DNA of 60,180 nucleotides from Obrimoposthia wandeli. Taxonomy: Eukaryota. The notes beneath the pieces were generated by a model, which worked only from the letters and a program-made list of their open reading frames with translations, did no database searches and had not been told where the DNA came from. Where the stretch lies: the NCBI GenBank assembly GCA_977020255.1, contig CDROCS010003045.1:1-60180 (forward strand), written 5' to 3'. The position numbers and the translations under genes were made by a program. This document shows positions 1 to 56,079 of this stretch, one piece after another; position 1 is the stretch's first letter, and every line of letters begins with the position of its first letter.

Positions 1-799
1 TTCTATCTTGACAGTCCAGTTATTCCAGTAACGTAATTTCTTACTTGTCTCTAGTTACGCACAGTGTATCTATAATTACGCCTATGTAATTTATAATAGA
101 AACACTTGCTAAAACTGGCTGTTTATCCACTGATATCACCATTTCGCAATCGAGGAACAAAATTGCTGGTTTCTGTGCGATTTTTAATTCAAAAAGGGCT
201 TATTGGTTGAGGTTCTTCTGCTTTTCTTATTTTTTCTATAAAGAATAGATTTGATCCTCTTCCCTATTTTGCTATATTGATTTTCTAATTGAGCTGCTTG
301 TAAGGTGTAGGTATGATTTCCTATCAGAAAGTTTAAGGTCTTATCTGATTTGGTTTAAATGGCTAGTGCCACGTGAATATCTATTTTTCACACTAATTGG
401 GGAATATTTCTACCTGAGAGCCATATGGGTTGGTCTTTTTCTCATTGGAAAAAAAATAAGTGCGCTTGTTCTTTCTGTGGTAATTTTTAACTTATTGGGA
501 AGAAATGTTTGATTTTAAAACATTTTTCTTCCTCCGTTGTTTGTAAAGTATGCAATACTAAACTGATTTTCATCTTTTGATAAAGGAATTTGCTAAATAC
601 CACCTTTCTGGCATATTTTCCGATTTTCCTTTCTATTTTTGCTGTGCTTTTGTTTGATTTGGCCGAGTGAGCTCCTCCTGGTCTGGAGTCGTATCCAGGT
701 GATTGATATCCATTCGTCTGCTTTAATCAATTTGTTAGTTGAATAAATAATGGAATTATTTCTCAGTCTTAAAGTTATAAAAATATCAGTCTTATACAT
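1..799 (-). pseudogene. Degenerate accessory ORF of the gypsy element (unknown product)
   Basis: ORF 593..799 (MYKTDIFITLRLR...); coding-like sequence continues to the window start with stops; same strand and composition as the rest of the element. No recognisable motif. Confidence 0.3.
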
Positions 800-882
800 G
801 CAGTATGTGGATTTGTCATGAAAATAAACCTACTAATAAAATTTAGACAATCTGTACAAAAAGAAGGATGTATGTTTATGGT

Positions 883-1278
883 TTAACCAGAGTTTTGTTC
901 ACCAATGTTCATATCCGAGTCATATCCATCATCAAGTGTTGTATTAGTTGGGATAGTAGGATTTATGGTCATATAAAAGTTTATCATGTCGCTATAGGTC
1001 ATCATTTGTTTTCTTAATGAGGCTATAGTTGATCGTTGACTTAAAGTTTGTTGTATTAAATAGTCTATTCTGACAAAACTATGTGTCAACCTCCCTTCTA
1101 GTTCGTCAATTGTCAAATCATTATTCAATTTTTCTTCCACACTTTGTTTTATTACTTGTTTCAGTGATTCATTTTGAGTTGTGATCTTTATATAGTAGTC
1201 GTCATGCTGTCTGGAAACATCTCGAATCTTCTTTCTCTTAATTTTTGCATTTTTACAAACTTTTGTCAATCTGTTCAA
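883..1278 (-). CDS. 131-aa accessory ORF, helical/coiled-coil-like, unknown function
   Basis: Uninterrupted ORF on the element strand: basic N-terminus (KIKRKKIR), heptad-like middle, acidic tail (DDGYDSD). Confidence 0.5.
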   Translation of the reverse strand: MNRLTKVCKNAKIKRKKIRDVSRQHDDYYIKITTQNESLKQVIKQSVEEKLNNDLTIDELEGRLTHSFVRIDYLIQQTLSQRSTIASLRKQMMTYSDMINFYMTINPTIPTNTTLDDGYDSDMNIGEQNSG

Positions 1279-1480
1279 TTTTATATCTAAAAATAACCAT
1301 TATTAAATTTCAGGATGCGTTTCCTGGTGATTTTATTTTAACATTATTTTCATTAAATCCTCCCTAAAATACACATATATATCTTAATTTCTATTAATAT
1401 TTATTCTATTTCCAAACTAATTTAGATTTACGTAATAGTACTAACATTATTTGTTACTTAAATGGTTTTAAAAAATTTGA

Positions 1481-2806
1481 TTATTGTGTCATATTTCTTT
1501 TCCTATTTTCTATTACAGTATTTATGGATAATTCTGAAGAATTCTCATCTTTAGGAATAATATAAATAGTAAAAAGGGCCTGGGGGCCGCAAAAGTGTTT
1601 TCGTTGTTTTGTTTCTATCATTTTCGTATGTTTCAAAATTAAGATTCTCCATGATATTTGATTTATAAATGTAATTATTTCGATTACTATAACTATTATT
1701 ATAAGTTCTTTTTTATCTTCATTCCTTGAATGTTCTTTTTGTTTACCATAGTGCATTTTTAAACTTTCATTAAATGATTTATAGGATATTGTTTTTGTTG
1801 TTTTTAATTTTAATTTAATTCTTATTCTCTCTCCATGATTTCAACTTGATTTGTAACTCTGTAAATCTTTGATGTAAATGCTGTAAGTATGTAGCATTTG
1901 TTTTGTGGTTGTTTCTTTGACATGTTTCTTAATTTTTTACTGCTGACCAACGACCACAAAAAATTGTAGGTTGATATAGTTTGGATATCTTATTTCCTAA
2001 AAATTGTTAATTTTGTTAGATTTTATAACTTTCAAACTTTTGACTCCATTGTCTGTACATTATTGGTTTATTAGTGATTACGCATTCTCTATTGTCCATA
2101 ATTATTTTCTGGATATCTATATTTTCTATGGTTAAATTTGTTTTAGTTTGTGTATTTTCTAATTGTTTTCTTGAGTCTTTCCAAAAATTAGCATTATTTC
2201 TTTCTATATCTAATTTAATGAGGGCTTTATCTAAATCATCTATTTTAATTGAAATTTCCATTTTATCATTATTTTATGTTTTGATATATAATTTGCTGTT
2301 GTTTTTAATATTGATGCTAGGTATATGTGAGTTTCTATAATTCTTTCATAGAGTGTTATATTTTTTTAATTTCTGACTTAATTCTTATTTTATATTGTGT
2401 TTCTGTTCTTAAAAATGGTATTGTATATTTTTGTGAATTTATTCCTGAAATAATTATATTTTGTTTTCTATCTGTTTGTGTGATTTGCACATTTCCTGTT
2501 TTGTTTGTAAGAAGAGAAATTTTTAACTTTATTGATGTGATTTCAGATATTATTGTTATTAATCCAAAAATATTTTATGAGATGAGTTGTTGAGTCGTAT
2601 TTATTTGTTTGTTGTTGTATGATTGATTGATTGTCATTTATGTTTGTTGCGTTTACTTTCAGTAGGTTATATTTTATTGTAAAATATATTATCAATAACA
2701 TCATTATTTTACCAATTTCTTTCATTGACATTTTTATTGTATTTCTGGTTTGATGACTCAAAATAGTTTTGTTTTTTGTTTTTTGTGAGTTTTTTATTGT
2801 CAACAT
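1481..2806 (-). pseudogene. Frameshifted type-I membrane protein with FN3-like domain(s) downstream of integrase
   Basis: Signal-like MKEIGKIMMLLIIYFTIKYNLL; manual translation 2540-2350 gives ITSIKLK...KYTIPFLRTETQYKIRIKS (FN3 L-x-x-x-T-x-Y pattern); IMIKW and GRWSAV further on; TM ELIIIVIVIEIITFINQISWRILIL in ORF 1481..1756. Confidence 0.5.
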
Positions 2807-2819
2807 TTGTAGAAGTGTA

Positions 2820-5800
2820 TTATCGTTAGTTGATCTTAAGTTATATTTGTGACTTTTTACTTTTGTATTCTCCTCAGGTATTTCTCGACATCTGTTTATA
2901 TGTGCTCTTATTTCTTTTGATTTTGGTTCATTATCTAGTTTAGCTGTTATGTTGGTTACGTTGGTACTAATGACTGTATATGGTTTTGTATGGTTTTGAT
3001 AATTTGTGTGACAATCCTACATTAATTTGTGGATTGTGAATCATCACTTTACTTCCGCTTTTTATATTTGATGGCTTAGTTCTTCTATCATAATATTCTT
3101 TGTAATTTTCTTGTATGTTTTTTACAAATAGTTTAGCTTTTTCGAATACTAGTTTTATTCTTTCTCTAATTTCTATTTTATATTCAGGTATTTCTAAGTA
3201 TTGTGTATTAGGTTGTAGTAATGTTAGGTCAATAGGCATTTGAGGAACATAAGATAAAAATGTGTTTCTCCTGTGGATGCATGTACTGATGTTCTATATG
3301 CAAAAAGGCATGGATGTATGTGTAAATCCCAATCTGTTTGGTTGTTGTTTGTGTATGATGCCATCATATCTTCTAGGGTTCTATTAAATCTTTCTACTAA
3401 CCCGTCAGTTTGAGGGTGATATGGTGTTGTATTGATCTTTTATGTCAAAAATTTCAGCTATTGACGCTAATACATTATTTATAAATCCAGGTCCTTTGTC
3501 GGTTAATAATTTTCGAGGTGCACCGAAAGTAAAAATAATTTTTTCGACTAAAACCTTCGCGATGGTTTCAGCCTTATGATCATGTGTTGGAAAAGCCTCT
3601 GGCCATCTTGTAAAATAATCAGAAAATACTATTATATATCGATTTCCTCGGGGTGTTTCAGGTAATGGTCCCATTACATCCATGGCAACAGTTTCCATGG
3701 GGCTGATGGATAAGGTATTGGTTTTAAAGGTATTTTTGTGGTACGTAAAGTATTTTTCCGTTTAAGACATATTTCACAGGTTTTACACCAATTTGTTATA
3801 TCTTTTTTCATGTCAATCCAATAGTATTTTAAATTTAATCGTGAATGTGTCTTTTTTGATGATAAATGTCCTCCTAGCGCTCCATTGTGATATTGAAGAA
3901 GTAATTGACACTGAATTTCTTTAGGAATAACTAGTGAATATAGATTTTTGTCATTTAAATAATATAATATTTCATTACTATATTTGTATCGTGATTCGTG
4001 AATTTTTAAATGTTTTCTTAATTTTTCATCTGTTGGTACTTCGTTTGTGCTAATGTATTTAGTTATTTGCTGAATTTCATTATCTTTGCTTTGAAGTTTA
4101 GTAATTACTTTTTTTATCATATTTAGCTTGAATTATTGTAAAAAGATTTAATTCGATGTCGTTTGCAGTTATTTCGTTTATTTCTTCTCTTATTCGTGAT
4201 AGACAATCTGCATTAGCGTTAGATTTTCCTTTTCTATATTTTATTTCAATATCATATTTTTGTAAAATCAATGCCCATCTCATTAATCTAGATGTTGTAT
4301 CCTTATGATTTAAAAGCCATTGTAATGGTCTTTGATCTGTGTAAACATAAACCTTTCGACCTAATAAGTAATGTTTAAAATGTTCCATTGCGAAGCAAAT
4401 AGCTAGGCATTCTCTTTCTATCGTTGAGCAATTTTTTCATGTTTTTAAGACCTCTGCTCACATATGCTATCACATGATCTTTTTCGTTATTTTCCTGTTG
4501 TCCTAAAACTGCTCCTAACGCATAACCACTGGCGTCAGTCATAACTAAAAATGAGTTATTAAAATTAGGATATCTAAGTATAGGTTTTTTCGATTAATTT
4601 TTGTTTTAAATATTCATAAGATTCTTGTTGTTCTTTTTCCCATTCAAATTTTTTCATCTTTTTTAATAAGTTTATTTAATGGTATTGTTATTTGTGCGAA
4701 ATTTCTAATAAATCTACGATAATATCCTGCAAGCCCTAAAAATTCCTGTATATTTTTACTGTTTTTGGGATTGGAAAATTTTTAATCTTTTCTACATTTC
4801 TCTCGTCTGGTTGTATTCCTTTTTGCTGATACAGCATGTCCTAAGTAATTTACTTTATCTTTTATCCATTCACATTTCTTTGGTTTTAGTTTTAATCCTG
4901 CTACCTGTAATCTAAAGAATACGTTTTCTAAATCTTTTAAATATTCTTCAAAATTTTTTTAAAAATAAGAATGTCGTCGATATATACCATTACATGATCT
5001 GCATCCATTAAAATATGGCTCATACATCTCTGAAATGTTGCTGGAGCTCCGGTTAATCCAAATGGTAAGACATTGAATTCATACAATCCTTCTCTTGTTG
5101 AGAAAACTGTTTTATATTTATCTGACTCCTCAATTTCTATTTGCCAGTATCCACTCTGTAAATCTAAAGTTGTAAATACTTTTGCATTTTTTAGTTTGTC
5201 TAATATTTCATCAATTCTTGGCAGTGGATGAGTATCTTTGTGAGTGATTTCGTTTAGTTTTCTGTAGTCTACGCAAAATCTCAAAGAACCATCTTTCTTT
5301 TTTACTAAAACAACAGGTGATGTCCATGCAGAAAAACTTCTTCTAACAATTTCATTTTCTAACATTCCTTTTATTTGTCTTTGAGCCTCATCTCTGTAAG
5401 TATATGGAATTCGGTAGGGTCGTTGTTTTATTGCTGTGTTTGTTGTTAACGGAAGATTATGTTTTATCAAATTTGTTCGACCTAAATCGTATTCATTTTT
5501 AGCAAATATTACATAATATTTTTCTGTTAAAGTTTTAAGTTTTGATTTTTCATAATCATTTAATTTGATATCGTTAAAATTTATCGTAGATTTATCTTCT
5601 ATTTTTTCATTATCTATTAATTCAATATTTTCAATAACACTTATTTTTCCAAGACGTACTCCTTCTTTGAGATGAATTTCATTAATGTCTGCATTTAGAA
5701 TTCTGATTGGTATTGTGTTGTTTTTTATTTTACAAATTATATTTGGCAAAACGTAGTTCAAGGTTTCTTGTTGATATTTATAAGGTTCAAATAATACATA

Positions 5801-6397
5801 TTTTTCTGTGATTATGTTAGTTTCTAGTTGTAACATTGTTTCTGTTCTTGGTTGGAGAATGATATCTCCTTTTATTTCTAACTCGTATTCATTTTTGGCG
5901 TTAGGTCTGTAAATGTCTTTTATTTGATTTTTTTCAAAATCAAAGTGGAAATTATTTCCTAATTTTCTTAATGTATCTATTCCTATGATCATTTGGCAAG
6001 GACAATTTTTCATGATTTTTGTAGGTATTTTTATGAATTTATTTCCTATTTTAAAAAGACAGTCTAATTTTCCTATTATATTTACGGGTTGACCGTTTGC
6101 TGCTGTGACTTGACTATTTTCCTTAAGAAGAAGTAATTTTTGTTGTGTTTTTAAGAAAGATTCGTCTAAAACTGTTACGCTTGATCCTGTGTCAATTAAA
6201 GCTTTAAGTTTATATTCGTTAATTTCTACTTTTACATATGGTCGTTTGTCGTTATCTTTTTGATTTATTGTATATATTGTTGGTGCAGTTGGTTTTTGTA
6301 TATTTGTTTTATATATATATTTTTCTAAATCAGGATATTGTGAAGATTCCGCTTTTTCTGTTTCTTTGGTACTTGTAATTTTTTGTATATTTGTTTC
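2820..6397 (-). pseudogene. pol: Ty3/gypsy Pol: aspartic protease, reverse transcriptase, RNase H, integrase (frameshifted)
   Basis: PR KALIDTGSS (DTG 6193-6185); RT FCVDYRKLN, LDLQSGYWQI, LPFGL, VYIDDILI; RNase H TDASGYALGAVL, TDQRPL, NANADCLSR; IN GHLS/CKTCEIC, AMDVMGPL, LLTDKG, YHPQTDGLVERFNRTL. Confidence 0.96.
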
Positions 6398-8333
6398 TCA
6401 CATTTCATTTGATAATGTGTTTACTATGTTTTGATGATGATTAAAAATAAGGAATTTTGCCAAAAATGGGAAACATCCTAAGATTAATTTCCATGTTAAT
6501 CCTCCAACTTTATAAATATAATATGTTGATAAAATTTGACTTAGAAGAATCTTAAAGCAAATTAATAGAGCATATATTCCAACTAATCCAGAAAATGCTT
6601 GTCCAAAAATTAAAAAATTTTCCCATATTTTTGACATGGTGTTTTTAGTGGCTTTTATAAAATGATTTGGAGAAAGTAATAAGTCGTAATCAGGACGGCT
6701 AATTCCGTCAGGTACTGATCTTTCTATGATTTGTGTTAAAATTTTGGATCTTATTTGTGGAAATAAAATTTATTTTCTTAACTTATCTATATCTTTCTGT
6801 ATATAAATTCCTTTTGTGTTTAATTCGTTATCTGTTTGTATATTGATGTCGTTGCTGAGAGTGGTTAATTGTAATTTTTGTGGTTCTGCGACAATATCTC
6901 TTCTTGGAAGTGAAATCCAAATATCTTTTGAAATTTGATAATGAGGTGCCATTATGTTTGAGCAGTTTATTTCTTTTATGCTAAATGTGTTAAAGAGTAT
7001 GATTCTAGTGATTGGTTCTACAAATAATGAATTGTTTTTGTAAAAAATTGGTAATTCTTTTGTACATTTTTGGTGATTTCTTATGTTAACTATTACTTTT
7101 TTACATTGATAAGTGTATAACACTACTCCCATTACTCTTCCAAAAGTACCGTCAGCTAATGGTAATAATGGTGTTATTAATTCTGGGCTAGTAGCAATAA
7201 TTGCCAATTTCGTTTTTAATATTTCTTGATTTAATTTACAAGCATTCATTATGGTTTCTCTATATATTGCTTCTATTGTCATTAGTCCTTTGTGATAAAA
7301 ATAATCTAATTTATTGTTAAAATAATCATAATTTTTAATATCGAATTTAGTTGGTGTCGTTTTTGCATTATGTATTTTTTCATTACTTAAATATATTCCT
7401 TTATAATTAGTTGTATAAACAGAGTGTCCACATCGGGATTCCTCTTTCTTTTAATAAATCGCATTCCCTGAACCTTGTTCAATAGACATTAATATAGTTG
7501 GAGTTGATGTTTTTCGTATTTTTCGAGTTCTATATTTTTTGCGTATGTCCTTTGGAATTTGTTGATCTAGTTCCGGATCATCTCTAAATCTTTTTCCTTG
7601 AATTATTTGAAAAGTTTCTGATTTTAAATGTATTAATTTACATTGATCCATTTTTACTTTTTAGTAAAGTATTGAAGAACCCGTGTTACAGTGACCTATG
7701 TTTGCTTCACAAAATGGCATTGTTACCATTGTGTTTGTGGAAGGATCGAATGTTGCTTTAAAAGTTCTTAGTTCGACTTCAAAATTTTTAATAACTACTA
7801 AACCACTTTGCTTAACTCTCATTACGACATAAGTTCCTGTTGTACATTCTCCATCCGATTTAATCTACAATTTTTTTTTACCTACAACTGATATCATTTG
7901 TTGAATTATATTATTTTTCGCCGCTCGGACTTTAATTTCTCTATCTATTCTCAATTCTCCTGTTGCGAAAGCATCTTTACAATTTAAAGCGTCAACTATT
8001 ATTGGTGTTTTTCCTAATGCTGGTTTTCCTATTGAATTGTGACTATGTTGTCCACAATATGTTATAAATGTCTCTACATGTACTCTACAAATCTAAAACT
8101 TCTGCATATATGAAATCTGTTTCCTGATATACTTGATACAACTTAGTATTTTTGATTTTTACCTCGTTTGGGTCAGCGTCTGCACATTGCTGTAAATCCA
8201 TTAAAGAATATTTATTTTGAATTTTATATTTTGAACAATCATATGCTTCTAAAGCATTAATTGGTTTTATCATGTTCATAATTAGACATATTGTTAATAT
8301 TATCTGAATAATTTTCCATAATTTTTTCATCAT
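6398..8333 (-). pseudogene. env: Chuvirus-like (class III, gB-type) envelope glycoprotein, between gag and pol
   Basis: Signal MMKKLWKIIQIILTICLIM; AYDC..SL.D...C; CRVHVETFITYCGQHSH; DGEC; CGHSVYTT; FNNKLDY; CKKVIVNIRNHQKCTKELPI; FVEPITRI; LRK*ILFP; C-terminal hydrophobic WENFLIFGQAFSGLVGIYALL. The Cys pattern matches chuvirus G as I recall it. Two frameshifts and three internal stops. Confidence 0.85.
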
Positions 8334-8370
8334 TTTATTAAGATTATTTGTATTTTTAAAATTTTAGTTT

Positions 8371-10150
8371 TTAGATTTTTTGTGTTTTACGTTTTTTCTT
8401 GTGTTTTACTTTCTTTTCTTGTGTTTGAGTAGTTTGGTTTGTTTTTGTGATTGTATATTTATTTTTTTGTAATGTCAAACAACCATCTCTAAACATGTCT
8501 CCAAATTCGGATTGTAAGTTTGTTCTATTTGTTTGTGGTTCACTGTTATGGCATTGTTGGTGTATTTCTCTGTAACGATTATCCATTTCTTTAAGTCGTA
8601 ATTTTAACAATGCTAATTCATCTGTGTTTGGAGTTGTTTCTGCATTTTCTATAGTGTGGATAGGGTTTCTTGGGGTATATTGTCGATCTTGAGTACTGTT
8701 TTTGAACTTGTGGTTGCTGTGTTATTGTTGTGTTTCCAAATTGATTCATCATTGTGTTTAATTTTCCACAGTCATCAGTGTTGTGATTTTTCATATTACA
8801 AATCTTACAAAATTTTGTATCGATATTAAAATATCTATTTTGATTATTGTCATAATTGTTTGGTTTATTGAAGTTATTATTCATGGTAGTGTATTATTAC
8901 TTTGTCTATTTATTAATTTTCTACAAGTTTCAATTGTGTGATTGTCTTTTTGCAAAATCTGCAAAATTTTATGTTATAATTTTCGACAATTTTCTATTGT
9001 GTGATTTTGGAGTCCACAATTTGTGCATTTTTGAAAAGATCTTTGTGTAAATTGTGAGTTTGCAAAATTTATATTTGTTTGGTTTCTATAAAAATTATTT
9101 ATTGGTGGTCTAAATTGTTGAGGATTTTGAAAATTATATTGAGTATCTTGGTTAAAATTCCTAGTTTGGTTGTAGTTTGGTGGCGTTTGTGGTCGTTCTA
9201 TTTTTTCAAAAGATAATGCTGAAACCTCGGTTTGCTGTATCATATTTAGTCTTGCTTCTACTAGCTGAGCTTTTCCTATAGCCTGTTGAAAGTTTTCTAC
9301 TTCTAGTAATGCAGGGTGATCTCTAATTTTATTATTTAATCCATGTAAAAATTGATGTAAAAGTAATCGTTCTCTTTGTGCTTCTTCTATTTCGGGAAAA
9401 GATTTTAATGCAAGTCGTCGTAATTCGACTGCGAATATATTTGTGGGTTCTCCTACATGTTGCTCTCGTTGTCTAAATTGATTTAAGTAGTTCTGGTCGG
9501 ACTGTACTCCTAAAACCATATTTTAGAAATGTTGGACTAAGTGTTCCCATGTGTCTTTTTGCAGATTTGTTAGGGCAGTGCCTTTTAGGTATGCTGGAAA
9601 AACTCTAAGTTTTTCTAGGTCTGTCCATTCGAATGCTTGAGCAAAAGAATCATATCTATTCAAGAATTCTGGTAAAGATGATTTATCGCCATTAAATGCG
9701 TCTAGTGGTATGTTTAATCTATGATTTACCCTTTTGATGTACTTCGTTTATTTGTTCGTTATTTATTTCTATGTTAGGTGGTACTGGTTCTGCCACTGTT
9801 TCTGATGTTTCTGACGAGTTGTCTGAGTCAGATGTTTGTGGTAAGGATAAACTTTCTGTATCCGAATTTGATGTTAGGTTTTGGTTTTCAGAGTCGGTTG
9901 AAATTAAGCGATCCGTGTGTTGGTGAACTAACGGAGTTTCAGGGAAAAATTCGTTATTGGTTCTAAAATTTATCTGGGATTTAGGTCTCTGTGGTAGTGT
10001 TTCACTTGTGTTAGTTCTTACTAACCTAGTTTGAATGCGTCTCCAGTGAAGATTAGCATTACGTTTAGATTTTGAAATCTTTGTGTATTGTTCACTATTA
10101 TCCTGCGTACTGGGTCGAAAATTAATTTACGTGTTTATATATTCTTGTCT
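8371..10150 (-). pseudogene. gag: Gag with two CCHC zinc knuckles (frameshifted)
   Basis: AFNGDKSSLPEFLNRYDSFAQAFEWTD..AYLKGTAL; QREQHVGEPTNIFAVELRRLA; FLHGL; knuckles CTNCGLQNHTIENC and CKICNMKNHNTDDC; coiled-coil and basic C-terminal extension. Confidence 0.87.
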
Positions 10151-10768
10151 AGTTTTATTGAAAAACGATTAAAGAAAATGTATATTTAAATAAATTGTTT
10201 TTTAAAAACAGTCAGGAATTATCTCTACTCTGAGATCAAAATACAGCTCGGCCTTATGATAATCGATTACCGTGATTTGAGCTGTAAGTCCAACCAAAGT
10301 AATAGAAAAAATTTCTAACCTATCAATATCCTTAAGTCAAATCTGCTATCGCTATTTTTATTTTAAAAACTAATATTGTAAATTTATTAATTTAAATTAT
10401 GTTAAGATAAATTATTTAATATATCTTAATCAGACACAGGATAATTTTGAATCAAAAACTATTGCTTCAAAAACTATGAAAACTTGTTAATTCGATAACC
10501 CCAGTTTATGATCTCTAACCTAAACCAGTAAAAATATTAAAATAAATTGGTGAAAATCCTAAATCTAAATAAAGTAATATGTTTGTATTTTATTTCAAAA
10601 ATAGTCCTAATATTTTACAACTAAATTTCGAATTTCTTATTTTCACTTCAACAGAAAAATGAATTCCAATATGAATTATGTATTTTTATTATTATTGTTT
10701 CTATTTTACAAATGTATATATATTGCTCTAAATTTTTATTTTAATAGATCGAGACAATGTAGTTGGGC

Positions 10769-10877
10769 TTAAAATAATAATGAAAACTCCTTGCAAAACC
10801 TCTGGCGGTATGTACCACAAAGTTAAAAATAATAATGAAAACTCCTTGCAAAACCTCTGGCGGTATGTACCACAAAG
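10769..10877. repeat. ~54-bp tandem duplication in the 5' leader
   Basis: Two copies of TTAAAATAATAATGAAAACTCCTTGCAAAACCTCTGGCGGTATGTACCACAAAG. Confidence 0.9.
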
Positions 10878-10913
10878 TATTTTTACTTTACTTTAACTAT
10901 CACAACCAAGAAA

Positions 10914-11017
10914 TTATTCTAAAAAATACAGTATAATTTTATTCTAAAAAATACAGTATAATTTTATTCTAAAAAATACAGTATAATTTTATTCTAAAAA
11001 ATACAGTATAATTTTAT
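10914..11017. repeat. 25-bp tandem repeat x4
   Basis: (TTATTCTAAAAAATACAGTATAATT)n. Confidence 0.9.
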
Positions 11018-11325
11018 TAAAAATGAATTAAAACGTATATTTAATATTATAAACTATGAGGGACTTATTCAAAATAGCACTTATTAATAAATGTATTAAA
11101 AAATATTATATTGGGGGTATTGAAAGCACAATGTATTTAAAATTTTAAAGAAAATATACTTATGTAAGATCGTATATATTCAGTATAAATTATTTTAAAA
11201 TACTAAAAAAAAATGTTATTATGTAATACTGAAATAGTAAGATAAGAATAATAAGTAATAATAAGTTAAAATAGTCAATAACAATAAAATAAAAACAAAA
11301 CACAATAAAATTACCTTTATGTGTT

Positions 11326-11343
11326 CACTCTTCGGGCTCACCA
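11326..11343 (-). promoter_or_regulatory. Putative primer-binding site of the gypsy element
   Basis: Minus strand TGGTGAGCCCGAAGAGTG upstream of gag, TGG start; resembles tRNA-Trp/Arg 3' complements, cognate tRNA not determined. Confidence 0.5.
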
Positions 11344-12340
11344 CTATTAATAAATAGAATAATAAGTAATTTTATTATCAATTTTTATTGTCAAATCAAA
11401 TCAATAAATCAAATCCAATTGTTGTTTCTGTAATAGAATATAGTCCTGATTTCGAATCAAATTATTGTTTCAGTAATAGATTATTGTCCTGAATTCGAAT
11501 CAAATTATTGTTTCAATAATAGATTATTGTCCTTGAATTCGAATCAAATTATTGTTTCTGTAATTATAATTATTTTGAAGTTAATTCAATTTTGTATTTC
11601 TTCAATAATTTTGCTTTTTATGAAAAAATTGTGAAACGAGGCAATACTAATAATTGTGATTACAAGTCTGCAAGTAGACTTTTATATATGCCATTACATG
11701 TACGTTTTGGTAATATCACAAAGTTAAATTGGGCAGGTGAATTTGGTAGTGTGTGGCCTTCATTGATAATTTTCGCTGCCTGCTTGAATTATTATTAGAC
11801 ATGTTGTGGAGGAGAGATCTGGGTAGAGGAAGCTGGTATTTCCTTTGGCTCTGCACACACACACACACATGTGCAGCCAGGGAAATTTCACCGTCTTTCA
11901 AAATTCTGACAGGTGGAAAATGCCAAATTAAACACACATACACTGAGAACACCAATCATCACACATGTGCACAATGGATAGGTGAGTGAGTACAGAGAAT
12001 ACGTGAGTGAGTACAGAGAATAAGTGAGTGAGTACAGTGATTTCCGCTGTGTATGTGTGTTGAGTGATGTCGGCTGTGTGAGTGTGTGTGTTGAAATGTG
12101 CACTTGCACACCAACATCACATGTCGACGATATTCGTCGGCACATGAAAGGGGATATCTTTCCTTCTTTTCTGGTTTTTATTATTGTTATCTCAGGCTTC
12201 GCGGAATCCACTGCGAAGTTAGAGATAAATGGGGCCATCTCCCTGATGAGCCCGGTAGACGAAACGGGCTTTTCCTGTCGGAGATTAACCACTCTAAACT
12301 AAAATGCCAGTAAGTGCATATTTTATCTAAATAGAACTTT
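11344..12340 (-). repeat. Candidate 5' LTR containing ~43-bp x3 (11445-11570) and 21-bp x3 (~11981-12040) tandem repeats
   Basis: Directly upstream of the PBS, GC-richer than its flank, CA-microsatellites. No partner LTR in the window and no clear TG..CA ends. Confidence 0.35.
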
Positions 12341-13595
12341 TCCCTAATTAAGGAAAGTTCTTAATTAATTCCTTAATTAATTAATTCTTATTTTAATTTT
12401 TTTTATATATATATATATTTTTAATTTTAAAATAAATATTTATAAGATATTCCCAACATATATATATATATATATTTAAATTACAATCATAAAATAATGT
12501 AATTTTAAAATTAATAAATGTTTAAGATATTTAACTTAGAGTTATAATAATTAGGTTTGTATATACATTTGTTTAAATACATCAAAAGGATAATATAAAA
12601 ATCGCGGTAATTTAAAAATATGTTATAATTTATTACTTTACTGACTTTTATCAAAATTTAAGTTATTAAAATCTAAAGGGTGTGTTTAAAGCATAAATTG
12701 TAACAACAACAAAAGTACAAGTGAGTTAATATCTTGTAATATTCTATCATTTTTAACATTTGTATTTTAGTAATTATTAGTTAAACTTGAAGTATTCTTT
12801 TTTAAATAAATTATTTATATTTTAAAAATATCAAATAGTACTTGTTAATATGAATTGCATTGCGTTTGAAACTATTTTCGTCATTGTTTTAATATATTAA
12901 TTGTAATTAATTTGTATTTATTTTCTAAAGTTACAGTCAGATTATAGAATAATGATATTAGTCTGTCGGATATACATCAATGGATTCGATGAATAACATG
13001 TGGTAAGATGAATATTTATCAAATTATTAATTATTTTATAATTAACATTATGTTTAAAATCAAATTTGTTTAATTAAATCAAACAAATGATAAAAAATTT
13101 GGCAAAAATTTAAATTAAAAAAATATTTTTATTTTAGAAAATTACAAGTATTTTTCTCCAGGACCCATTAAAGTATGCATGACATGTAATTTAAGTTATT
13201 TAAAGAAATTTTACCATAATTCTTTAGATGCGTAAGCCTGGGAAAAACTTTGATATAAATTTTCACATAGAATAGTGTGTGTATTATTACGTAATACATT
13301 AAAATTTGTTAAATTTAATATCTAACAAATTAAATTGGCACAAATTTTAATTATTATTTTGAAGAAAACAAAATTACAAGTATTGTTCTGAAATAACTTT
13401 TAATGATTAGAAGAAATTCTAAAATACTTCATAATTTACTTGATTAGTATGAAAATAGATTCAAAAATAATCATGTGTACGTACTCAATATGTGATAAAC
13501 TAATAAAAGCTTTGAAAAATAACAAATATATTTTAAAATCTACTGAAAACTGGATAAATATAATTTATACTTTGTATATTATTAATTCAGTAATT

Positions 13596-18732: not shown

Positions 18733-19041
18733 TTTTAGATCGACTTCTTATTAATGTCTCAGACAGTAAAGGCATTATTAATGTATAATTAATTATTGAA
18801 AAATCAATACTGTCTGAGACTGCTTGGCAGTCAATGATGACAAAAGGATTTAAAAAGTTTGAAGATTTATTGCCAAGGATTTAGAATTTAAATTTGAAGA
18901 AGTTATGGATTGATATCAGAAAATCAAATCAAAAGGTTTGTAAAGTTTTCTAGAAAAGTTGGTAAAGGTTTTATATTAATAAAAAGATTTTAGAAGTGAT
19001 GCGTTTATGATAATTATATTCCGATGTCCGTTTACGAAACA
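18733..19041 (+). repeat. 5' LTR of BEL/Pao element
   Basis: Near-identical to 25689-26012; ends GAAACA. Confidence 0.92.
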
Positions 19042-19042
19042 A

Positions 19043-19053
19043 TGGTAGCAGAG
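19043..19053 (+). promoter_or_regulatory. PBS complementary to initiator tRNA-Met
   Basis: TGGTAGCAGAG 1 nt after the LTR; complement of the animal tRNA-iMet 3' end CUCUGCUACCA. Confidence 0.88.
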
Positions 19054-19093
19054 TGTATAACGAGGATATCGATAAGAAAAAAAAGAAGCATGC

Positions 19094-20600
19094 TTGATTT
19101 ATGTTGTCGTGTTTCATCCAGAAACTTATGAGATGAGCACTAAGAATCTACGATTTCTGCAAAATGCTACAGGACACTATTATGGAAGGTTTGGAAAATA
19201 CTTTAATGACAAAATTGATAAGGTAAACTTCAATATCCTTAAAATGAAAATGATTAGAGCACCAACAGCAACAGTAATCAGACTGATAGTTGCAGATAGT
19301 TGTGATACCTTCAGTGATAATTTTTTATTTGATTTTGATGTTAAATTTTGTGATATTAAATTAAATAAAAAATCTTGTTCCTATAGTTCCTGTGCTTTAG
19401 AACAACCAGGCGATAAGCGGGGGTTCTGGAGCATAAGGACACAAAATAAAATGATAAAGAGGATAAACATCCTCCTCCCTCTAATATTTTGATTGTTGGG
19501 GATAGAGTCCGACTTATGGAACACACGAAGTGTATTAAAGCTAGAAATGAACGGGAAAAGGTAAAATATATAGGGGTGAACGTGATAGATGATGTGAAGA
19601 GCGGGGGACTAAGATAGGAACAGTTTTGGCTTCAGAAGCATGGGGAGAGGTTAGAGGAGAATGACTTGGTAGAAGAAGGGGATCAGATCAGAGTAATGTT
19701 TAAATTACTAGGGGGAATGAAGAAAGAAGAAGTAGAGGAAACAGGAACAACATTTTCAGAATTAATACTAAGATTAGTAAGTCAACAAGAAAAGGGTGAA
19801 GTGTTGAAAGCACTAAATAAAGTGCACTATAAGAATAGAGAAGCAAGGGAGATATTCAGGGCGTTACCACGAATTATTATAAAAAGAAAGCTAAACATCT
19901 AAGAAATAAATTAATAAAGAAAGCGAATGCGGCACGAAGGCTAGGACAGGAAAATTGGAGGAACAAGAAGATTTCAATGTGCAGATTAATGGAGCTATAA
20001 AGGATGTCTGGATAATGGGAAGCGAGAACACCATCAGACATGTAAAACAGAAGATAGATGCAGTCATAAAAGGAGAGAGTTTTACAATAAAAATAAATAC
20101 AGTTTTTTATTCGGATGGGATCTTAGATCAATGTCTGATCTCAGAAGGTTTGAAAGTGAAAGTGATTAAAACATTGGTAATAAGTACAGAAAAGGATGAT
20201 GCAGAGTCTATCGCAGCGACAGAAATATTTGATAAGGAGTTAGACTGGGAAAGTTGCGATGAAGATGGCAAAATAAATACTTCGTGGTATGTTTTGTTTT
20301 TAACGGGTCAGAGATAATAGTTGAATTAAGTATAAACCATTCGGGTGGTAAAGCCAGTAGGGAGGTAGAAAAACGGTTAAAATTAAAGGAGGGGAAATTT
20401 TGGCTACATAGAGAAGGAAAAAGGTACATAAGGAAAATATAAGAATTTATAAATGACAAGATATACGTCATACGCCTAAAAGGAGGGTCTGAAATTGAGG
20501 AAAAGGAAATAACCAGGTGTGACTTCAATATTGCGATAAACAATTTCTTGCCTGGAAGATGATAAGAAAAAGAAAAAAGAAAAGCAGAATATCTATGAAG
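19094..20600 (+). pseudogene. Pre-Gag region with three ubiquitin-like domains (19532-19716, 19970-20179, 20281-20487)
   Basis: QFWLQKHGERLEENDLVEEGDQIRVMFKLLGG; FNVQING..ENTIRHVKQKI..LDQCLISEGLKVKVI; FVVCFVFNGSEIIVELSINH..FWLHREGK..KIYVIRLKGG. Confidence 0.7.
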
Positions 20601-20602
20601 AA

Positions 20603-21720
20603 ATGTATAGGTCATTAAGTGAAATCTATGAGAAAAAGATAGAGACGGCGTTTCAAGAGTATGACAGCAGAAAAGAAGAAAGATGGGTTAGCGAGCAGAA
20701 GAAGATGGAAAACAAATTCGATGAAATACAAGGGAAAGTATGGGAAAGGACAGAGGACACGAAGCGAAAGCTCAATGGTAAGATAGGGCCAAGGAAACAA
20801 AGGTATAAGTCAGTTGAAGAAAATTCAGCTCCCAATTTTTAGAGGAGAAGTACAAAAGTACGAAAACTGGCGAGCTATATTTAACAGAGTGATCGACCAG
20901 TCAACGGTGGATAAAGAAGAGAAAATGCTGCATCTACTGCAATATGTGGACAGAGAACCATTAAGGTTAATTGATAGCTTGGGATACTCAGCAGAAAGCT
21001 ATGATGAACCGCTGAAGATATTGTCATTAAGATACGGAGGGACGGACAGGAATTATATACAGTTGATGGAAAAGGTGGAAAGGTTCAGGTAAATAAGGTG
21101 GAACAACTATCGGGATTTGGATATGTATAGCCAACTATTACAAAAGTAACCGTACGAGCACGAGCACTAGGAAAATAGGAGGAATTAGGGGAGGTTTTCT
21201 ATGTGAAAAATTGCTACAGAAACTACCAATGTTAGGAACAGCAGCATGGTCAAAATGGTTAGAAGCAGGAGATATACAAAAGAGTATAATAAATTTAGAA
21301 GAATGGATACAACAAAAGGCCGAAAGTTGGCGAATAGCCGAGGAAATAGCGAGTTGCAGCAGAGAAGCACCAAAATATAAAAATAATGAAAGAGCAAAAA
21401 CCTTCGTAGAAGCGGTAAAGCAAAATGATAGAATGATCTCTGGACAATTTCAAAGGAAGGGGAGAAAGATGATAAAGTGTCTAAGGTATAAGAAGGAGCA
21501 TTACACAGACCAATGTAAAGAATTGCAGAGATTATCCCTAGCAGAGAGACGCTGGTGGGTTGAAAAGGAAAGTTTATGTAGAAATTGTCTGCGAAATAAT
21601 CATTACGTAAAACAATGCAAGGTGGATAAGTTGTGTAAAATGAGGAATCGCACCGAAAAACACGATTGGATATTGCATGTGGATGAAGAGCGTAGTAATC
21701 AGACGTGCCCACAATCCTAC
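20603..21720 (+). pseudogene. gag: BEL/Pao Gag (coiled coil, DUF1759-type region, three Cys-His motifs)
   Basis: LPIFRGEVQKYENW..FNRVID..EKMLHLLQY..LSLRYG; CLRYKKEHYTDQC, CRNCLRNNHYVKQC, CKMRNRTEKHDWILH. Confidence 0.9.
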
Positions 21721-24700
21721 TTAACAAGAGGGACAAGAGAAGAAACTACATTCTTGGCATTAAGAATCGTACCGGTTATGGTACGGCATAGAGGCCAAGA
21801 ATTGGTCAACGCCTTGTTAGATGATGCCAGCACACGCTCATATATTAGTAAGGATTTGTCACGAACGCTAAGAGTGTCAGGACAAAAACAAAATATTCGG
21901 GTGGAGATTATTGGAGGAAACGAGGAAACGATGGACTGTGCTGAAGTAAACATAGAATTAGAGAGCACGGATTGAAAATATGTGAAGCTAATCAACGCAT
22001 TAACAGTACCAGAGATTACCGGGGACTTAGAGGTAATAAATTGGTCAGTAAAAGCAAAAACGTGGAGGCATTTGGAGGGTATAAAATTCCCAGCGGTAAA
22101 TGTAAAGAGAAAAGTTGAATTATTACTGGGTGCGGACAACCTCGAATTGCAGAGTGCCCTTAAAGAAGTGAGAGGAGGACCAGTTGCACTGATAGAAAAA
22201 TTGACATCGTTGGGATGGACTTGTATTGGTCAGGTTAGAGGAGCTAATATAGGTAGACAACACACGAATTTGGCTCACACCTATTTTGGAACCCAGATCG
22301 AAACGGAGGAATTTAATATAGGAAAATTCTGGGAAGTAGAAGCCGTACCAAATCTCCAAAGTAAGTAAAGTTATAACGACAAAAAGTTATTAAAAGAAAC
22401 ACGACTCGGAATTAAAGAAATTGAAGGAAGGTATGAAGTCAGCCTACTGTGTGGAAAAATCGTTTATGTTAGATGGGATGGTAAAATGGCGAACCAGCGA
22501 CAGAAGAGTTTGGAGAGAAGATTAGACAAGGACACGTGGTTAAGATCGGAGTACATGGCCGTCATCGAGAGCCATATCCAGAAAGGTTATATCAGGAAGG
22601 TACCCGAAGAAGAAGTAAAATGACAATGTGGTTGTGACCACATTTTCCGGTCGTCAAGCGATAAAAGGATACAATGAAGGTGCGAATAGTGTTTGATGCG
22701 GCGGCGAAGGTGCGAGGCACAAGTTTGAATGATTTAATTCATTGTTGGCCGAAGTTGCAAGGAGATTTAGTCACGATCTTATTAAGATTCAGAAAAAATG
22801 CTGTAGCATTAGTTTGTGATATATCAGAGATGTATCTACAGATAAAGATAAAACGTGGCTGAGATTTATATGGAAAGACCGCAAACAAGTAGACACATAC
22901 GAATTTAATCGGGTAGTTTTTGGGATCAATGCGTCACCATTCTTAGCACAATTAGGGACTCGAATAAACACTGAAAGGTTCGTGGGAGTATGAAATAGGG
23001 CTATCGAGACGATATTAAAGTCCACATACATGCATGACAGTTTGAATTCGGTACCGTCAGTCGAGGAGGCGATACAATTACAACAAGACCTACTGCAGGT
23101 ATGGGGCGGTGCGGGAATGAGTGCCAAAAAGTGGCTAAGTAGCAATCACCGAGTTAATCAACAAATCGCCACAGCAGATCAAGCGAAGGTCTTACAAATT
23201 GCGGATGGCGAAACGATGCAAAGTATAAAGACGTTAGGAGTGGCGTAGAACGCGCAGGTGGAAGGTTTTTGAGATGACGACGAATGTAGAGATGTTAACG
23301 ACCATTACAAAGAGGACATTTCTAAGTCTTCTGTCAAAAGTATTTGATCCATTAGGGTTTGCTGGTCCGATAGTAATACGGGCGAATTATTATGCAGGAG
23401 CTATGGCTTTCAGGAAGGAATAGGATGAGAAGTGGAATGGGGTATTAAAGAAGAGAAAAATCCATTGGGTAGAAGACGTAAAGTTACTGAATAAGGTTAA
23501 AGTTCCCCTTGAGATGGATACGGGCGGGAGTAGCTAGTAAATGTTCGATACATATATTTGTAGACGCTTCTGAGCAGGCATATGGAGCAGTAGATTACTT
23601 GAGAAATGAAGAAGCGGAAAAATAGTAGTAAGTTTCATAGCGTCAAAAACAAAAGTTGCGCCTTTAAAAGTAAAAAGTATACCGCGTTTAGAGTTATTAG
23701 CTGCAGATGTCGGTTTTAAATTGGCAAAGGTACTCACGAGTGCGCTAGACTTAAAGTTAAAAGAGGTAAAGTTTTGGCTCGACAGTCTGAACGTACTGTG
23801 GTGGATACGCCAGCCAGGGCGGTATTATAATGCATTTGTTGCTAATCGCGTAGAACTTATAATGGAGGACACAAGTATAGCTCAGTGGAGGCATGTACCC
23901 ACAAAGTTAAACCCAACGGATATATTGTCAAGAAGAGTCGAGGTTCATCGACTGAGCCAAGATAAATTATGGTGGGAAGGTCCCGAGTTCTTATTAGGCT
24001 CAGAGACAGCGTGGCCGAAGCAATCAACACAAGGAGAAATGTCAACAGAAGTTGAAAATAAAAGAAAAGTGATAGTGACACATGTTACGCAGAAGATCGA
24101 TGGGTTCGACATAAGCAAGTATTCGACATTAGTAAGATTACAAAGATGCATGGCGTGGATAATACGCTTCACAACCAACGCACAGTTAGATCGAGATAGA
24201 CGATTATTGAAGGAACTGGAGATCACAGAGATCCAAACAGCCACAAAGCGGTTGGTAAAAGATGAGCAAAGAAGATATTATCAGGAGTATTATAAAAGGT
24301 TAGAACAACAGAAGCCGATAGAGAATAACAGTGGACTAATTAAATTGAATCCATGGATAGATCTAGATGGAATAATCTTGGCAAATACAAGAATTATCCA
24401 TGCACAATTTTTGGATTATCAAGCTAAGTATCCGATTATATTACCCTACGAAAGTTGGATCACAAAATTGATAGTAGAAGCCCAAAACAGGAAGTTGCAT
24501 CATTATGCAGGCGTGCAGCATGTATTGAGTGAGATCAACAAGCAATATTGGATCCCAAAAGCAAGACGATTAGTAAGAAGCGTAGAAATCAAATGTGTGA
24601 CCTGCTAAAAGAGTAAGTCGGGTGGAATGTCAGCGGCAATGGCTCCATTACCGTATTTTCGTTTTGAAGAACTACTCAGGGCATTTGCGAACGTTGGAGT

Positions 24701-25547
24701 GGATTACGCAGGACCAATTTTAACGAAGCAAGGCCGTGGAAATGTCAGAAGGAAACGGTACTTGTGTCTACTAACATGCTTACAGACCCGCGCAGAGCAT
24801 TTGGAAGTTACGTATGATTTAACAACAGATGAAGTGATCAGAGCGTTAAAACGTTGAAGGCGAGGACGACCAAGAATGTTTTTATCGGATAACGGGTGGA
24901 ATTTTGTTGGAAGATACGGAATTTTATAAAAGATACGTACAGTATTAAGAAAGAACTAGAAAAAGATGAGATCCGATTTGTGTTTAACTTACCTCACCGC
25001 ACTTTGGAAGAGTTTTTGAAATTATGGTGAAGTGTTCAAAAAGGCCATATTTAAACTACTGAAGAACGCGGATATTAGTGACGAAGAGTTAACAACCATC
25101 TTCATTGAAGCCGAAGCGTTGATAAATTCACGGCCGATTGGGATAAAAAATACAGATCCGAAGGAGAGCGAAGCGTTGACACCAAATCATTTTTTGATAG
25201 GCGAGGCACACGTAGAAACTGATTTTGAAGGAGAACGGTGTGGTATACAACAGCGTTGGAGGTTCGTGCAAAAGTTGACGACAGAGCTATGGAAACGATG
25301 GATGGAGGAGATTGTGCCAATGTGGGCACCTCGACAACGGTGGAATCAGGAACGTACGCCGTTGAAGAATGGAGATATGGTTTGGGTTATTGATAAGCAA
25401 AGTGAGAGAGGGCAATGGAAGTTGGGGAGAGTCGTCGAAGTCAGTCCGGGAACGGATAAGAATGTGAGAGTAGCAACGGTGAAGATTGGGACACAGACGG
25501 AAGTAAAGTCGCTCGGACTCCTTTGTAAGCTAGAATGTGAGGCGTGA
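21721..25547 (+). pseudogene. pol: BEL/Pao Pol: protease, RT, RNase H, integrase (multiple stops/frameshifts)
   Basis: PR NALLDDASTRSYI; [39 protein letters not shown], catalytic motif mutated to YMHD; RH FVDASEQAYG, VAPLKVKSIPRLELLAA, WLDSLNVLWWI, WRHVPTKLNPTDILSR; IN HHYAG/CVTC, VGVDYAGP, FLSDNG, ALTPNHFLIG. Confidence 0.95.
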
Positions 25548-25675
25548 ATAGGACGATGAAAAATAAAAGAAGGTGACGTATGATCCGGCATGATCTGAAA
25601 CTGCATCAAAGTATGATCCAGCATGATCTGAAACGGTATCGAGGAAAGGCTAGGTTAAGGTGATCTAGTTAGATC

Positions 25676-25688
25676 AAAGGGGTTAGGA
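25676..25688 (+). promoter_or_regulatory. Polypurine tract
   Basis: AAAGGGGTTAGGA immediately before the 3' LTR TG. Confidence 0.6.
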
Positions 25689-26012
25689 TGTTTAGGATCG
25701 ACTCTTATTAATGTCTCAGATAGTAAAGGCATTATTAATGCATAATTCATTATTTTTTAAATTAATTATTGAAAAATCAATACTGTCTGAGACTGCTTGG
25801 CAGTCAATGATGACAAAAGGATTTTAAAAGTTTGAAAATTTTTTGCCAAGGATTTAGAATTTAAATTTGAAGAAGTTATGGATTGATATCAGAAAATCAA
25901 ATCAAAAGGTTTGTAAAGTTTTCAGAAAAGTTGGTAAAGGTTTTATAGTAATAAAAAGATTTTAGAAGTGATGCGTTTACGATATTATATTCCGATATCC
26001 GTTTACGAAACA
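25689..26012 (+). repeat. 3' LTR of BEL/Pao element
   Basis: TGTTTAGG...GAAACA; matches the 5' LTR apart from scattered substitutions and an ~18-bp indel. Confidence 0.93.
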
Positions 26013-30496: not shown

Positions 30497-30546
30497 AATT
30501 TCCACTGGAAATTCATCGATCCTAGATGAAGTAGAACCTTACGGTG
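30497..30546. repeat. ~50-nt hairpin-containing motif, inverted homolog of 14357-14410
   Basis: AATTTCCACTGGAAATTCATCGATCCTAGATGAAGTAGAACCTTACGGTG versus the reverse complement of 14357-14410. Confidence 0.7.
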
Positions 30547-30559
30547 ATTATTAAATTGT

Positions 30560-30745
30560 AATGATTTATGAATCTGCGGTTGTGGTCTTATTGTCGTGTT
30601 ACTGAATAGATTCATTACCGTATTTAGTTTGCCACATTCGACAGTGTTGTGGTTTATCATATTACATATTTTACAATATTTCGTATTTAATTATTAAAAT
30701 ATATACTTTGATTATTATTCTGAGGTCTTCTATTTGCCATAATTT
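30560..30745 (-). mobile_element. Gag zinc-knuckle fragment related to the gypsy element at 8700-8880
   Basis: CKICNMINHNTVECGKLNTVMNLFSNTTIRPQPQI versus CKICNMKNHNTDDCGKLNTMMNQFGNTTITQQPQV. Confidence 0.85.
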
Positions 30746-30789: not shown

Positions 30790-31600
30790 GTTTTACCTAG
30801 TAACGGATGCCCTACAGAACTCCAGCCGGATAAGGATGCTAGTAGCTTTATTATCGATTAGGACAATCCTATAAATCTTCAAGTAAAATGAGGAAGCGGC
30901 TTTAACAGAATTTTCTGTTTTATTATTCTCCAAATACTATCAGAAAACTCACATATTTCGGTTTAGAAAAGAAATGAAGTATGATGAAGCAAATAATGTT
31001 ATGATTGGGTTTGATAATAAAATAAAAATATTATATAGATAAAGAAGTGAAATGTTTATATGAAAATAACAAAGTCATGTTTAAAAATCGATAAGAATTT
31101 ATTCAATTGACATTTGAATCTAAAAAAGAAGCTGTTCAATTCGGTTTTGAAAGCTAACATGTATTAGGTAATATAAAACATGATTTTGTTTTATCTAAAT
31201 CGATTAGAAATGTTTCTGGAAGAGTAACAAACCTGTTGTTAGCTAATACTAGATCTAAAGATGTGCTGAACTGAAAAGGTTTTCAAAATATTATAAAATA
31301 GATAGTGAAGTGAATTTATGTAATTTTTTAATGAAGGAATTCAGTGAATATTTGGATAAATGTGTAACATTAAAAAATTGTAAATGACATTTACAGTAAA
31401 AGAAAGCAATATAAAACGATTTTTCTTTGATGATAAACTCGATAAAATTTGGTTTACTGGAAATACTTTGAAACACATACAAAAAAAAACATAAAAGCTA
31501 AAATTCAGGCAAATTTTTAAACTCTATTAATCAATTATATATTTCAACTAGTGTTATAGAACCAACGGTTTTAGGATGACTGCTGATTTCACTTTTGAGA
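30790..31600 (+). pseudogene. Maverick penton/minor capsid relic
   Basis: ASSFIID*DNPINLQVK*EAALTEFS (F..Lp.pi.L.g.We.aL) and QLYISTSVIEPT.(I/L)G motifs. Confidence 0.6.
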
Positions 31601-31789
31601 ACAGTATAGATCCCAAAGTCGAACTAAATTGGGAGAGTTATCGGTATTCGTAAGATCAACCAGTGTATCTTCCAGTTGCTGTCTTATATATAAAAATATA
31701 AAAAATTAATAATAGAGATGATTCCGGACAACTAATAGATTTCACATACAAAGCCAAGACAAGTTTAACAATACATTTAAGTAAACGAA

Positions 31790-31891
31790 ATGGCAAATAA
31801 GGCAATAATTGAGGCTTTTAGTCAAAGCAAACAAGTTGGAGAATTACCATATTTTGTTGGTAAACAATATGGATCTGGCTGCACAGCTTAG
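31790..31891 (+). pseudogene. Maverick core-protein (PZ/pVII-like) N-terminus
   Basis: MANKAIIEAFSQSKQVGELPYFVGKQYGSG. Confidence 0.6.
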
Positions 31892-31904
31892 GTAGATTAG
31901 GTAG

Positions 31905-37050: not shown

Positions 37051-37086
37051 AAGAAAGAATGTAATTGTACATTTGAGGTTTAGTGC

Positions 37087-55826: not shown

Positions 55827-56079
55827 TTGAAGTAAGCAAGAATAAGACAGCGAATTGAGAATAAATTATAGAAGAAGAATATATGAAATCAAATTGAGAT
55901 AAGATAATTGGGCAAAGTGTGAATCGAGTTGATACATTCCTCGAAGTAATTTGAACAAGGTTTGAATCGAGGATTGATATGTATTTCTCAAAGTAATTAA
56001 TTGAATAAGTGTTAAAAATCAGTAGATTTGTTCCTCGAAGTAAGTAATTTGAATAAATTTGTAAATCGAGTTGAATAAA

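Follow-up and report, generated by a model that had tools for sequence, protein, structure and literature searches.

What does the LTR element at the start of contig CDROCS010003045.1 of Obrimoposthia wandeli encode next to its integrase? The initial annotation of the window, by which we mean the whole stretch of 60,180 nucleotides analyzed here, placed at positions 1481-2806 a second membrane protein with a signal peptide, FN3-like domains and a transmembrane (TM) helix, standing alone at the env position and captured from a host gene. The general view is that a single env gene serves both LTR retrotransposons and retroviruses. The element lies on the minus strand of window 1-12,460, as do all of its features given below, and is truncated by the contig start; it is a gag-gB-pol Ty3/Gypsy errantivirus of a Burro-related clade. 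Its 5' LTR (11346-12460, ends approximate) is matched by sister-copy LTRs at 11858-12458 and adjoins a tRNA primer-binding-site-like motif beginning with TGG (11330-11343), which also follows the LTR end in sister copies. Sister-copy mapping put the start of the polyprotein ORF and the gag region at 8332-10126. This region had no Pfam gag match of its own and aligned with the gag of a distant relative, P0124 (E 2.6e-18), which has a zf-CCHC and a weak Ty3_capsid match. A first internal signal peptide (8253-8339, hydropathy 2.02) precedes a gB-type (class III) fusion glycoprotein, composed of an ectodomain and two hydrophobic segments (6428-8252), and pol (2840-6280) follows with protease, RT, RNase H and integrase in the Ty3/Gypsy order. 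The env of HSV/gB type is located between gag and pol, in frame, in one polyprotein. In sister copies, Pfam matched the gB-type fusion protein (PF24664, E 6e-59 and 2.8e-29), protease, RT and integrase, and by eye this gB resembled the Schmidtea mediterranea errantivirus gB rows in the available part of a published supplement (PMC13524379). This likeness and the presence of a Burro-like family in the genome point to a flatworm, probably a triclad, as the host.

By mapping on an uninterrupted natural sister copy, we identified window 1481-2806 as a frameshifted copy of a 412-aa module, hereafter X. Module X consists of a signal peptide, a probable FN3-like domain, a second beta-rich domain, a basic stalk, a TM helix and a tail. 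The signal-like N-terminus, the FN3-type signature and the stretch IMIKW...NLTIENI...GRWSAV noticed earlier are all present in minus-strand frames (2806-1481). A basic linker (2730-2887), open in sister copies and 81-97% identical between subfamilies A and B of the family, joins the integrase in frame to a second internal signal peptide (2648-2749), predicted from its hydropathy (1.92) and A-x-A-like end and retained in subfamilies A, B and C. Domain 1 (2321-2584), the FN3-like candidate, is followed by domain 2 (1922-2323), beta-rich with two conserved Cys and an unproven FN3 resemblance, and by a basic, Thr-rich, hypervariable stalk (1709-1921). The TM helix (1616-1723, hydropathy 2.24) is of moderate hydrophobicity and includes charged residues, among them a Glu (E347) invariant across the three subfamilies. 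The cytoplasmic tail (1481-1630), initially put at about 45 aa, counts 47-52 aa (1630-1484) before the stop codon at 1481-1483, which ends the polyprotein. Its P380-G381-P382 is invariant, and a similar motif is found in the tail of one relative (P0006). The 310-aa ectodomain carries six sequons and a net charge of +10 per 100 aa; the gB and pol of this element reach +3.

One sister copy has a single 2,889-aa ORF that spans gag to the X tail in the order gag-gB-PR-RT-RH-IN-X, with a DEDDh exonuclease ORF behind it, all within the LTRs. Strong hydrophobic segments occur at residues 617, 1188, 1217, 2476 and 2816 of this ORF, and a weaker one at 2526. The LTR pairs of three sister copies are 96-99% identical and enclose X, so the segment is neither missing from the copies nor outside the LTRs. 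Since this single ORF exists and other copies have open frames extending into the integrase, X is the C-terminus of the polyprotein. It is part of the pol polyprotein and not a stand-alone env ORF, and in this respect the initial annotation had to be revised. Reading X as a separate ORF was rejected, as uninterrupted copies run in frame from integrase.

Copies of X are abundant in the genome. A DNA search of the assembly, with 40 matches scored of 2,653 candidates, returned the window and 39 further matches, all 94-100% identical. Using the uninterrupted copy P0002 (412 aa) as protein query, 101 of 6,697 candidates were scored, all 93-100% identical, and 75 of the 101 had no stop in 412 codons; in 54 of these 75, the open frame measures 500 aa or more and extends into the integrase. 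With many near-identical uninterrupted copies and a full-length ORF, the reading of X as a pure artefact was rejected; the feature is more than chance. The window copy is broken, with 18-19 indel events in the 1,310 nt of X against each of five sister copies and an indel density elsewhere of 3.8/kb in pol and 2.1/kb in gB. Between 11 and 12 of the X indels adjoin homopolymer runs (background 36%), and the X region is close to the contig start. This breakage may reflect assembly error or decay.

Three subfamilies were available to compare the rates of change. All 150 scored subfamily B matches were 92-100% identical to the B query. Subfamily C was represented by five of 12 loci chosen from an exonuclease search, the other seven being subfamily B (three), partial (one) or lacking both X and integrase in the 6 kb fetched (three). 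The X of A and B share 65% identity over 411 aligned residues, and those of C and A 57-60%, with integrases 94-96% identical; across the three subfamilies X is 57-66% identical and nearly colinear. The head domains are the more conserved part (70-81% identity, with about 80% in domain 2), compared with 22-59% in the stalk, which keeps an equal length at 55% (A/B) and 22% (A/C) identity. Pairwise Nei-Gojobori dN/dS of X was 0.46 [0.35-0.63] for A/B and 0.47 [0.35-0.62] for A/C, compared with 0.05-0.08 in gB and 0.05-0.11 in pol. As these intervals lie below 1 and above the gB values, X is maintained as a protein under purifying selection while evolving several times faster than gB. The dN of X (0.20-0.29, against about 0.05 in gB and pol) is the pattern that would be expected of an exposed, host-facing protein.

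These values also bear on the idea that X is a captured host fragment carried along as a passive passenger. Such a passenger would account for a dN/dS far above those of pol and gB, for stalk (0.7-0.9) and signal-region values whose intervals include 1, and for the broken window copy. It would not account for whole-X intervals that exclude 1, for an open frame and topology that persist at dS 0.44-0.61, for the predominance of open copies, or for the same layout in distant elements. The dN/dS results largely refute this reading, which we regard as very improbable. Separately, dS between A and B (L033 vs. L062-L069) was uneven, at 0.7-1.2 in gag, gB and RT, falling to 0.34-0.44 in the RNase H, integrase and X regions. 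This contrast suggests that the subfamilies have recombined, and L027/L028 has the appearance of an A/B recombinant.

The FN3 assignment was examined by several approaches, which agree with one another although each taken singly gives weak evidence. Pfam fn3 matched domain 1 at E 0.056-0.19 (13-14 bits for E 0.056-0.12), under the gathering score of 25, and gave no match for the X of subfamily B. When 53 FN3 domains from the assembly were used to build an HMM, it scored domain 1 at 12.9 (A), 10.8 (B) and 9.3 bits (C), values equalled by 0, 1 and 1 of 3,000 shuffles each, and other parts of the element stayed under 2 bits. By hhalign, domain 1 aligned with FN3 over 23 columns (E 0.0011, probability 21%). 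It has an alternating hydrophobic pattern and an L-x5-Y motif in the E-F strands, with L105 and Y111 invariant; the B-strand Trp and C-strand Tyr of FN3 are absent from it, and a W...Y pattern occurs in domain 2. ESM Atlas returned FN3 clusters at 0.89-0.92, whether queried with A or with B, and the recognition value was low. AlphaFold models were of low confidence (mean pLDDT 32-33), the second showing seven strands in domain 1 at pLDDT 42-50, and Foldseek results (TM-scores below 0.2) were set aside for that reason. A VIA search with a low-confidence model ranked C2-type chains best (Z 6.8), with FN3-containing chains at Z 5.6-5.9 (rmsd 2.7-3.2, 70-74 aligned). Profiles of X had no match in the PDB. 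Of the FN3-like domains proposed in the initial annotation, the first has statistical support, beating the shuffles, and we consider it quite probably FN3-like. The supposed second repeat, domain 2, gave no significant match (hhalign E 0.14, probability 0.4%; profile score 0.8 bits), and we lean slightly against an FN3 fold for it. A type I cytokine receptor homology region, with its two FN3 domains, four N-terminal Cys and WSxWS, was not recognized: domain 1 has no Cys, and of the WSxWS motif X shows a G-x-W resemblance alone.

Searches with X alone detected no relative, neither among 4,012 candidates at E 0.01 nor among 1.84 billion representatives. None of the 101 scored own-genome matches fell outside the family, and no host donor gene was found; we infer host capture, as proposed initially, from the fold only. 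Relatives were found by searching with RNase H-integrase-X. The ten closest proteins (P0004-P0013) were 40-52% identical, and six of them (P0006, P0007, P0008, P0010, P0011 and P0013) have a long in-frame extension after the integrase with a strong TM segment. A seventh, P0005, includes the start of such an extension, and P0004, P0009 and P0012 had no post-integrase module in the available sequence. Among the 110 matches, none of the 15 others with extensions above 100 aa had a TM segment. An FN3-like motif recurs one to three times in six extensions; most signal peptides were read by eye. The charge of the relatives' ectodomains ranges from -1 to +5 per 100 aa, so not all are basic. In P0124 (3,735 aa), which clusters with P0007, a single ORF encodes gag, gB, pol and the module. 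A scan of metagenome contigs for gB gave three loci, two of them long enough to analyze (L096 and L097). Both are single ORFs of gag, gB, pol, signal, two domains and TM, with an exonuclease ORF next in line. A module HMM from which these two had been left out matched both (E 3e-16 and 6e-10). Co-occurrence with a gB-type env, as expected from the initial annotation, was thus observed in the window family and in three distant elements of public assemblies, P0124, L096 and L097 (about 50% pol identity), each with a signal, two FN3-like domains and TM at the position of X. L096 has a second signal-FN3-like-TM module at 4750-5300, between duplicated protease domains and upstream of RT. No gB relatives were found in the viral_contigs set.

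For the relatives, whole-ectodomain profiles had PDB matches with FN3 proteins in 3/3 and 6/8 cases (E 0.07-1.5), the best of the eight being a kinase. We take the first three to be titin, tenascin and a monobody, and the six to be fibronectin or contactin, all FN3-containing. An expanded module HMM scored above 5 bits on 19 of 53 true FN3 domains and on 3 of 1,060 shuffles; domain-level comparisons of this kind are partly circular because the domains were cut around the L-x5-Y motif. The relatives' module profile retrieved its own members alone in a search of longer proteins. With the ectodomains of two relatives, an own-genome search gave two weak, stop-containing matches for one and none for the other. 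Integrase trees joined the family, its relatives and a giant Burro-like family of the same genome into one clade (100/100 support), with FN3-like modules in four subclades. X has no detectable homology to the relatives' modules and is not detected by their profile, so the clade-wide pattern may represent several captures.

Two further ORFs follow X in the window. ORF Y (883-1299), 138 aa and coiled-coil-like, is constant across subfamily A and was absent by tblastn from six subfamily B loci and from L096/L097. ORF Z (1-730), truncated by the contig start, is of the DEDDh exonuclease type, with a Pfam RNase_T match in a sister copy (E 5.7e-07) and an aligned D-E-D-H-D catalytic pattern. Exonuclease ORFs with this pattern were seen after the polyprotein in subfamilies A, B and C and in the two distant metagenome elements (L037:4901-6076, L096:10617-12107 and L097:12085-13473), the last two being related to Z (E 6e-28 and 3e-20). 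Given this distribution, the exonuclease is also clade-wide cargo.

In the giant Burro-like gB family (L042-L050, L052-L056), whose ORFs span 3,000-5,301 aa, BIR and RING domains lie between two protease copies, and a further ORF downstream encodes another RING. After the integrase, it encodes a dual-specificity phosphatase and several unrelated signal/TM cassettes. Together with P0004 and P0009, which show no module in the available sequence, these cassettes indicate that gB elements can do without an FN3 module. The last of the giant family's cassettes looked like X by eye, a likeness that hhalign did not bear out. The cassettes raise the possibility that X mainly serves assembly, its signal peptide anchoring the pol end at the ER membrane where gag and gB bud and its ectodomain acting as a spacer or gB chaperone. 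The in-frame fusion and linker are retained, and every gB element examined past integrase (A, B, C, with gB not fetched for C, P0124, L096, L097 and the giant family) has a signal/TM cassette with a differing ectodomain, as such a role would predict. An anchor, though, needs no two conserved domains (about 80% identity, dN/dS 0.2-0.5, and 0.23-0.52 in domain 2), and few parts of X are less conserved than its signal peptide and TM. We consider an assembly role improbable.

Tentatively, at a little under even chances, we predict from the sequence features that X is an accessory adhesion or attachment protein acting beside gB. The two internal signal peptides would thread the polyprotein through the ER membrane: the first would direct gB to the lumen, one of the two hydrophobic segments after gB would return the chain to the cytosol for pol, the second signal would direct X to the lumen, and the last TM helix would leave a short cytosolic tail. 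Both gB and X would then be lumenal, with gag and pol cytosolic, and signal peptidase would release both ectodomains. In this way X would be produced one-to-one with gB, glycosylated and in the same membrane. On particles or producer cells, its basic FN3-like head on a variable stalk would bind target-cell or matrix molecules and aid gB-mediated spread between cells. Adhesion or attachment is a role that would suit such a head, basic and open to glycosylation, on a stalk of variable sequence. The fast divergence, variable domain number and cassette replacement are more in keeping with an accessory protein than with an obligate partner of the gH/gL kind.

The main rival to attachment is that X modulates the host at the surface of the producer cell, as a receptor decoy, an interferer with immune or regeneration signalling, or a superinfection-exclusion factor. 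The nearest ESM Atlas clusters are indeed FNDC4/5 and cytokine receptors (recognition value 2070, weak), and binding to a partner is suggested by the Glu conserved within the membrane helix and by the PGP of the tail. The clade also gathers host-modulating cargo (BIR, RING, dual-specificity phosphatase, DEDDh exonuclease), as reported for Burro in the available part of a review (PMC6431247), and the second module of L096 sits between protease copies. On the other hand, the searches linked X to no particular host receptor by similarity, and co-translation with gB would tie X to particle production. We judge host modulation possible and somewhat unlikely. Even if X were a host modulator, the post-integrase position would be a surface-protein cargo slot in an abundant element clade.

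Herpesviruses combine gB, which needs partner glycoproteins, with accessory glycoproteins, and paramyxoviruses combine F with H/HN/G. The likeness to these viruses is that one mobile genome carries a fusogen together with another type I glycoprotein, observed here as co-encoding only; a difference is that gB and X both derive from one polyprotein. Searches that included low-confidence models showed no sequence or structural similarity of X to gH/gL, gD or H/HN/G. If X attaches, it would be a candidate for the means by which retrotransposon envelopes of gB type reach their target cells in the absence of herpesvirus-type partners. By extension, and with considerable doubt, a clade of invertebrate gB-errantiviruses may use two-glycoprotein entry, in which a class III fusogen and a fast-evolving, exchangeable FN3-type receptor-binding protein come from one membrane-threaded gag-gB-pol-X polyprotein and the post-integrase slot sets tropism. 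A single ORF with two internal signal peptides would be an unusual, RNA-virus-like route to a retroelement polyprotein.

The gag-gB-pol backbone is already known from Burro and flatworm errantiviruses. GAG-ENV(gB)-POL errantiviruses occur in Platyhelminthes, Nematoda and Bryozoa (Chary and Hayashi, PMC13524379) and share with the present element a Ty3/Gypsy pol, an HSV/gB-type env between gag and pol, LTRs and many near-identical copies. In the available part of that paper, a chromodomain is the sole domain noted after the integrase, the word fibronectin does not occur, and, unlike here, neither an exonuclease ORF nor another membrane protein is described. Burro/GYPSM1, the planarian giant Gypsy, likewise encodes a very large polyprotein in which env is in frame and flanked by gag and pol, along with additional domains and accessory ORFs, and the accessible text of its review lists no FN3-like type I membrane module (PMC6431247). 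The present element is compact in comparison: its ORF of 2,889 aa falls short of the Burro-style giant size (about 5,000 aa, above 25 kb), has no Pfam matches to BIR, BCL2 or MATH, and has the FN3-like type I membrane module at its C-terminus. The giant family of this genome shows the Burro-style size and cargo in part. LTR elements of bdelloid rotifers have also captured a DEDD-family exonuclease and small TM ORFs downstream of pol; as far as the available part of the report goes, their ORF3s replace env and their nuclease is DEDDy (PMC5408684), whereas gB, a second glycoprotein and a DEDDh-pattern nuclease are found together here. The sORF2/FAST-like proteins of MDG1-group retrotransposons, in the portion of the article available, are accessory TM proteins linked to cell-to-cell spread (PMC11952523); sORF2 is small and replaces env, whereas X has its large ectodomain and accompanies gB. 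No description of a second glycoprotein or of FN3 in retrotransposons was found in the literature covered, which took in supplements in part, and an earlier annotation may exist. X is thus a real, selected and apparently undescribed second membrane protein that recurs across the clade.

Other sequences met in these searches were of different origin. Multi-copy genomic FN3 matches, considered as element cargo, were rejected because they were host-like gene exons or bacterial contigs. L074-L079 are host-like FN3 exons with 10-20 copies each, some next to exons that we take to be kringle-like, and L058-L061 are gene-dense bacterial contigs in the assembly, with content that we assume to be Flavobacteria-like. 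Elsewhere in the window, a second LTR element lies on the plus strand at 18787-25984, with repeats at 18787 and 25760 and ORF fragments that we take to be Bel/Pao-like. An isolated gag fragment at 30544-30687 is 65% identical to the X-bearing family. Positions 37086-39916 and 52904-55833 are part of large direct and inverted duplications of several kb, a set that also includes 30961-34240 vs. 50142-51307 and 58740-60130.
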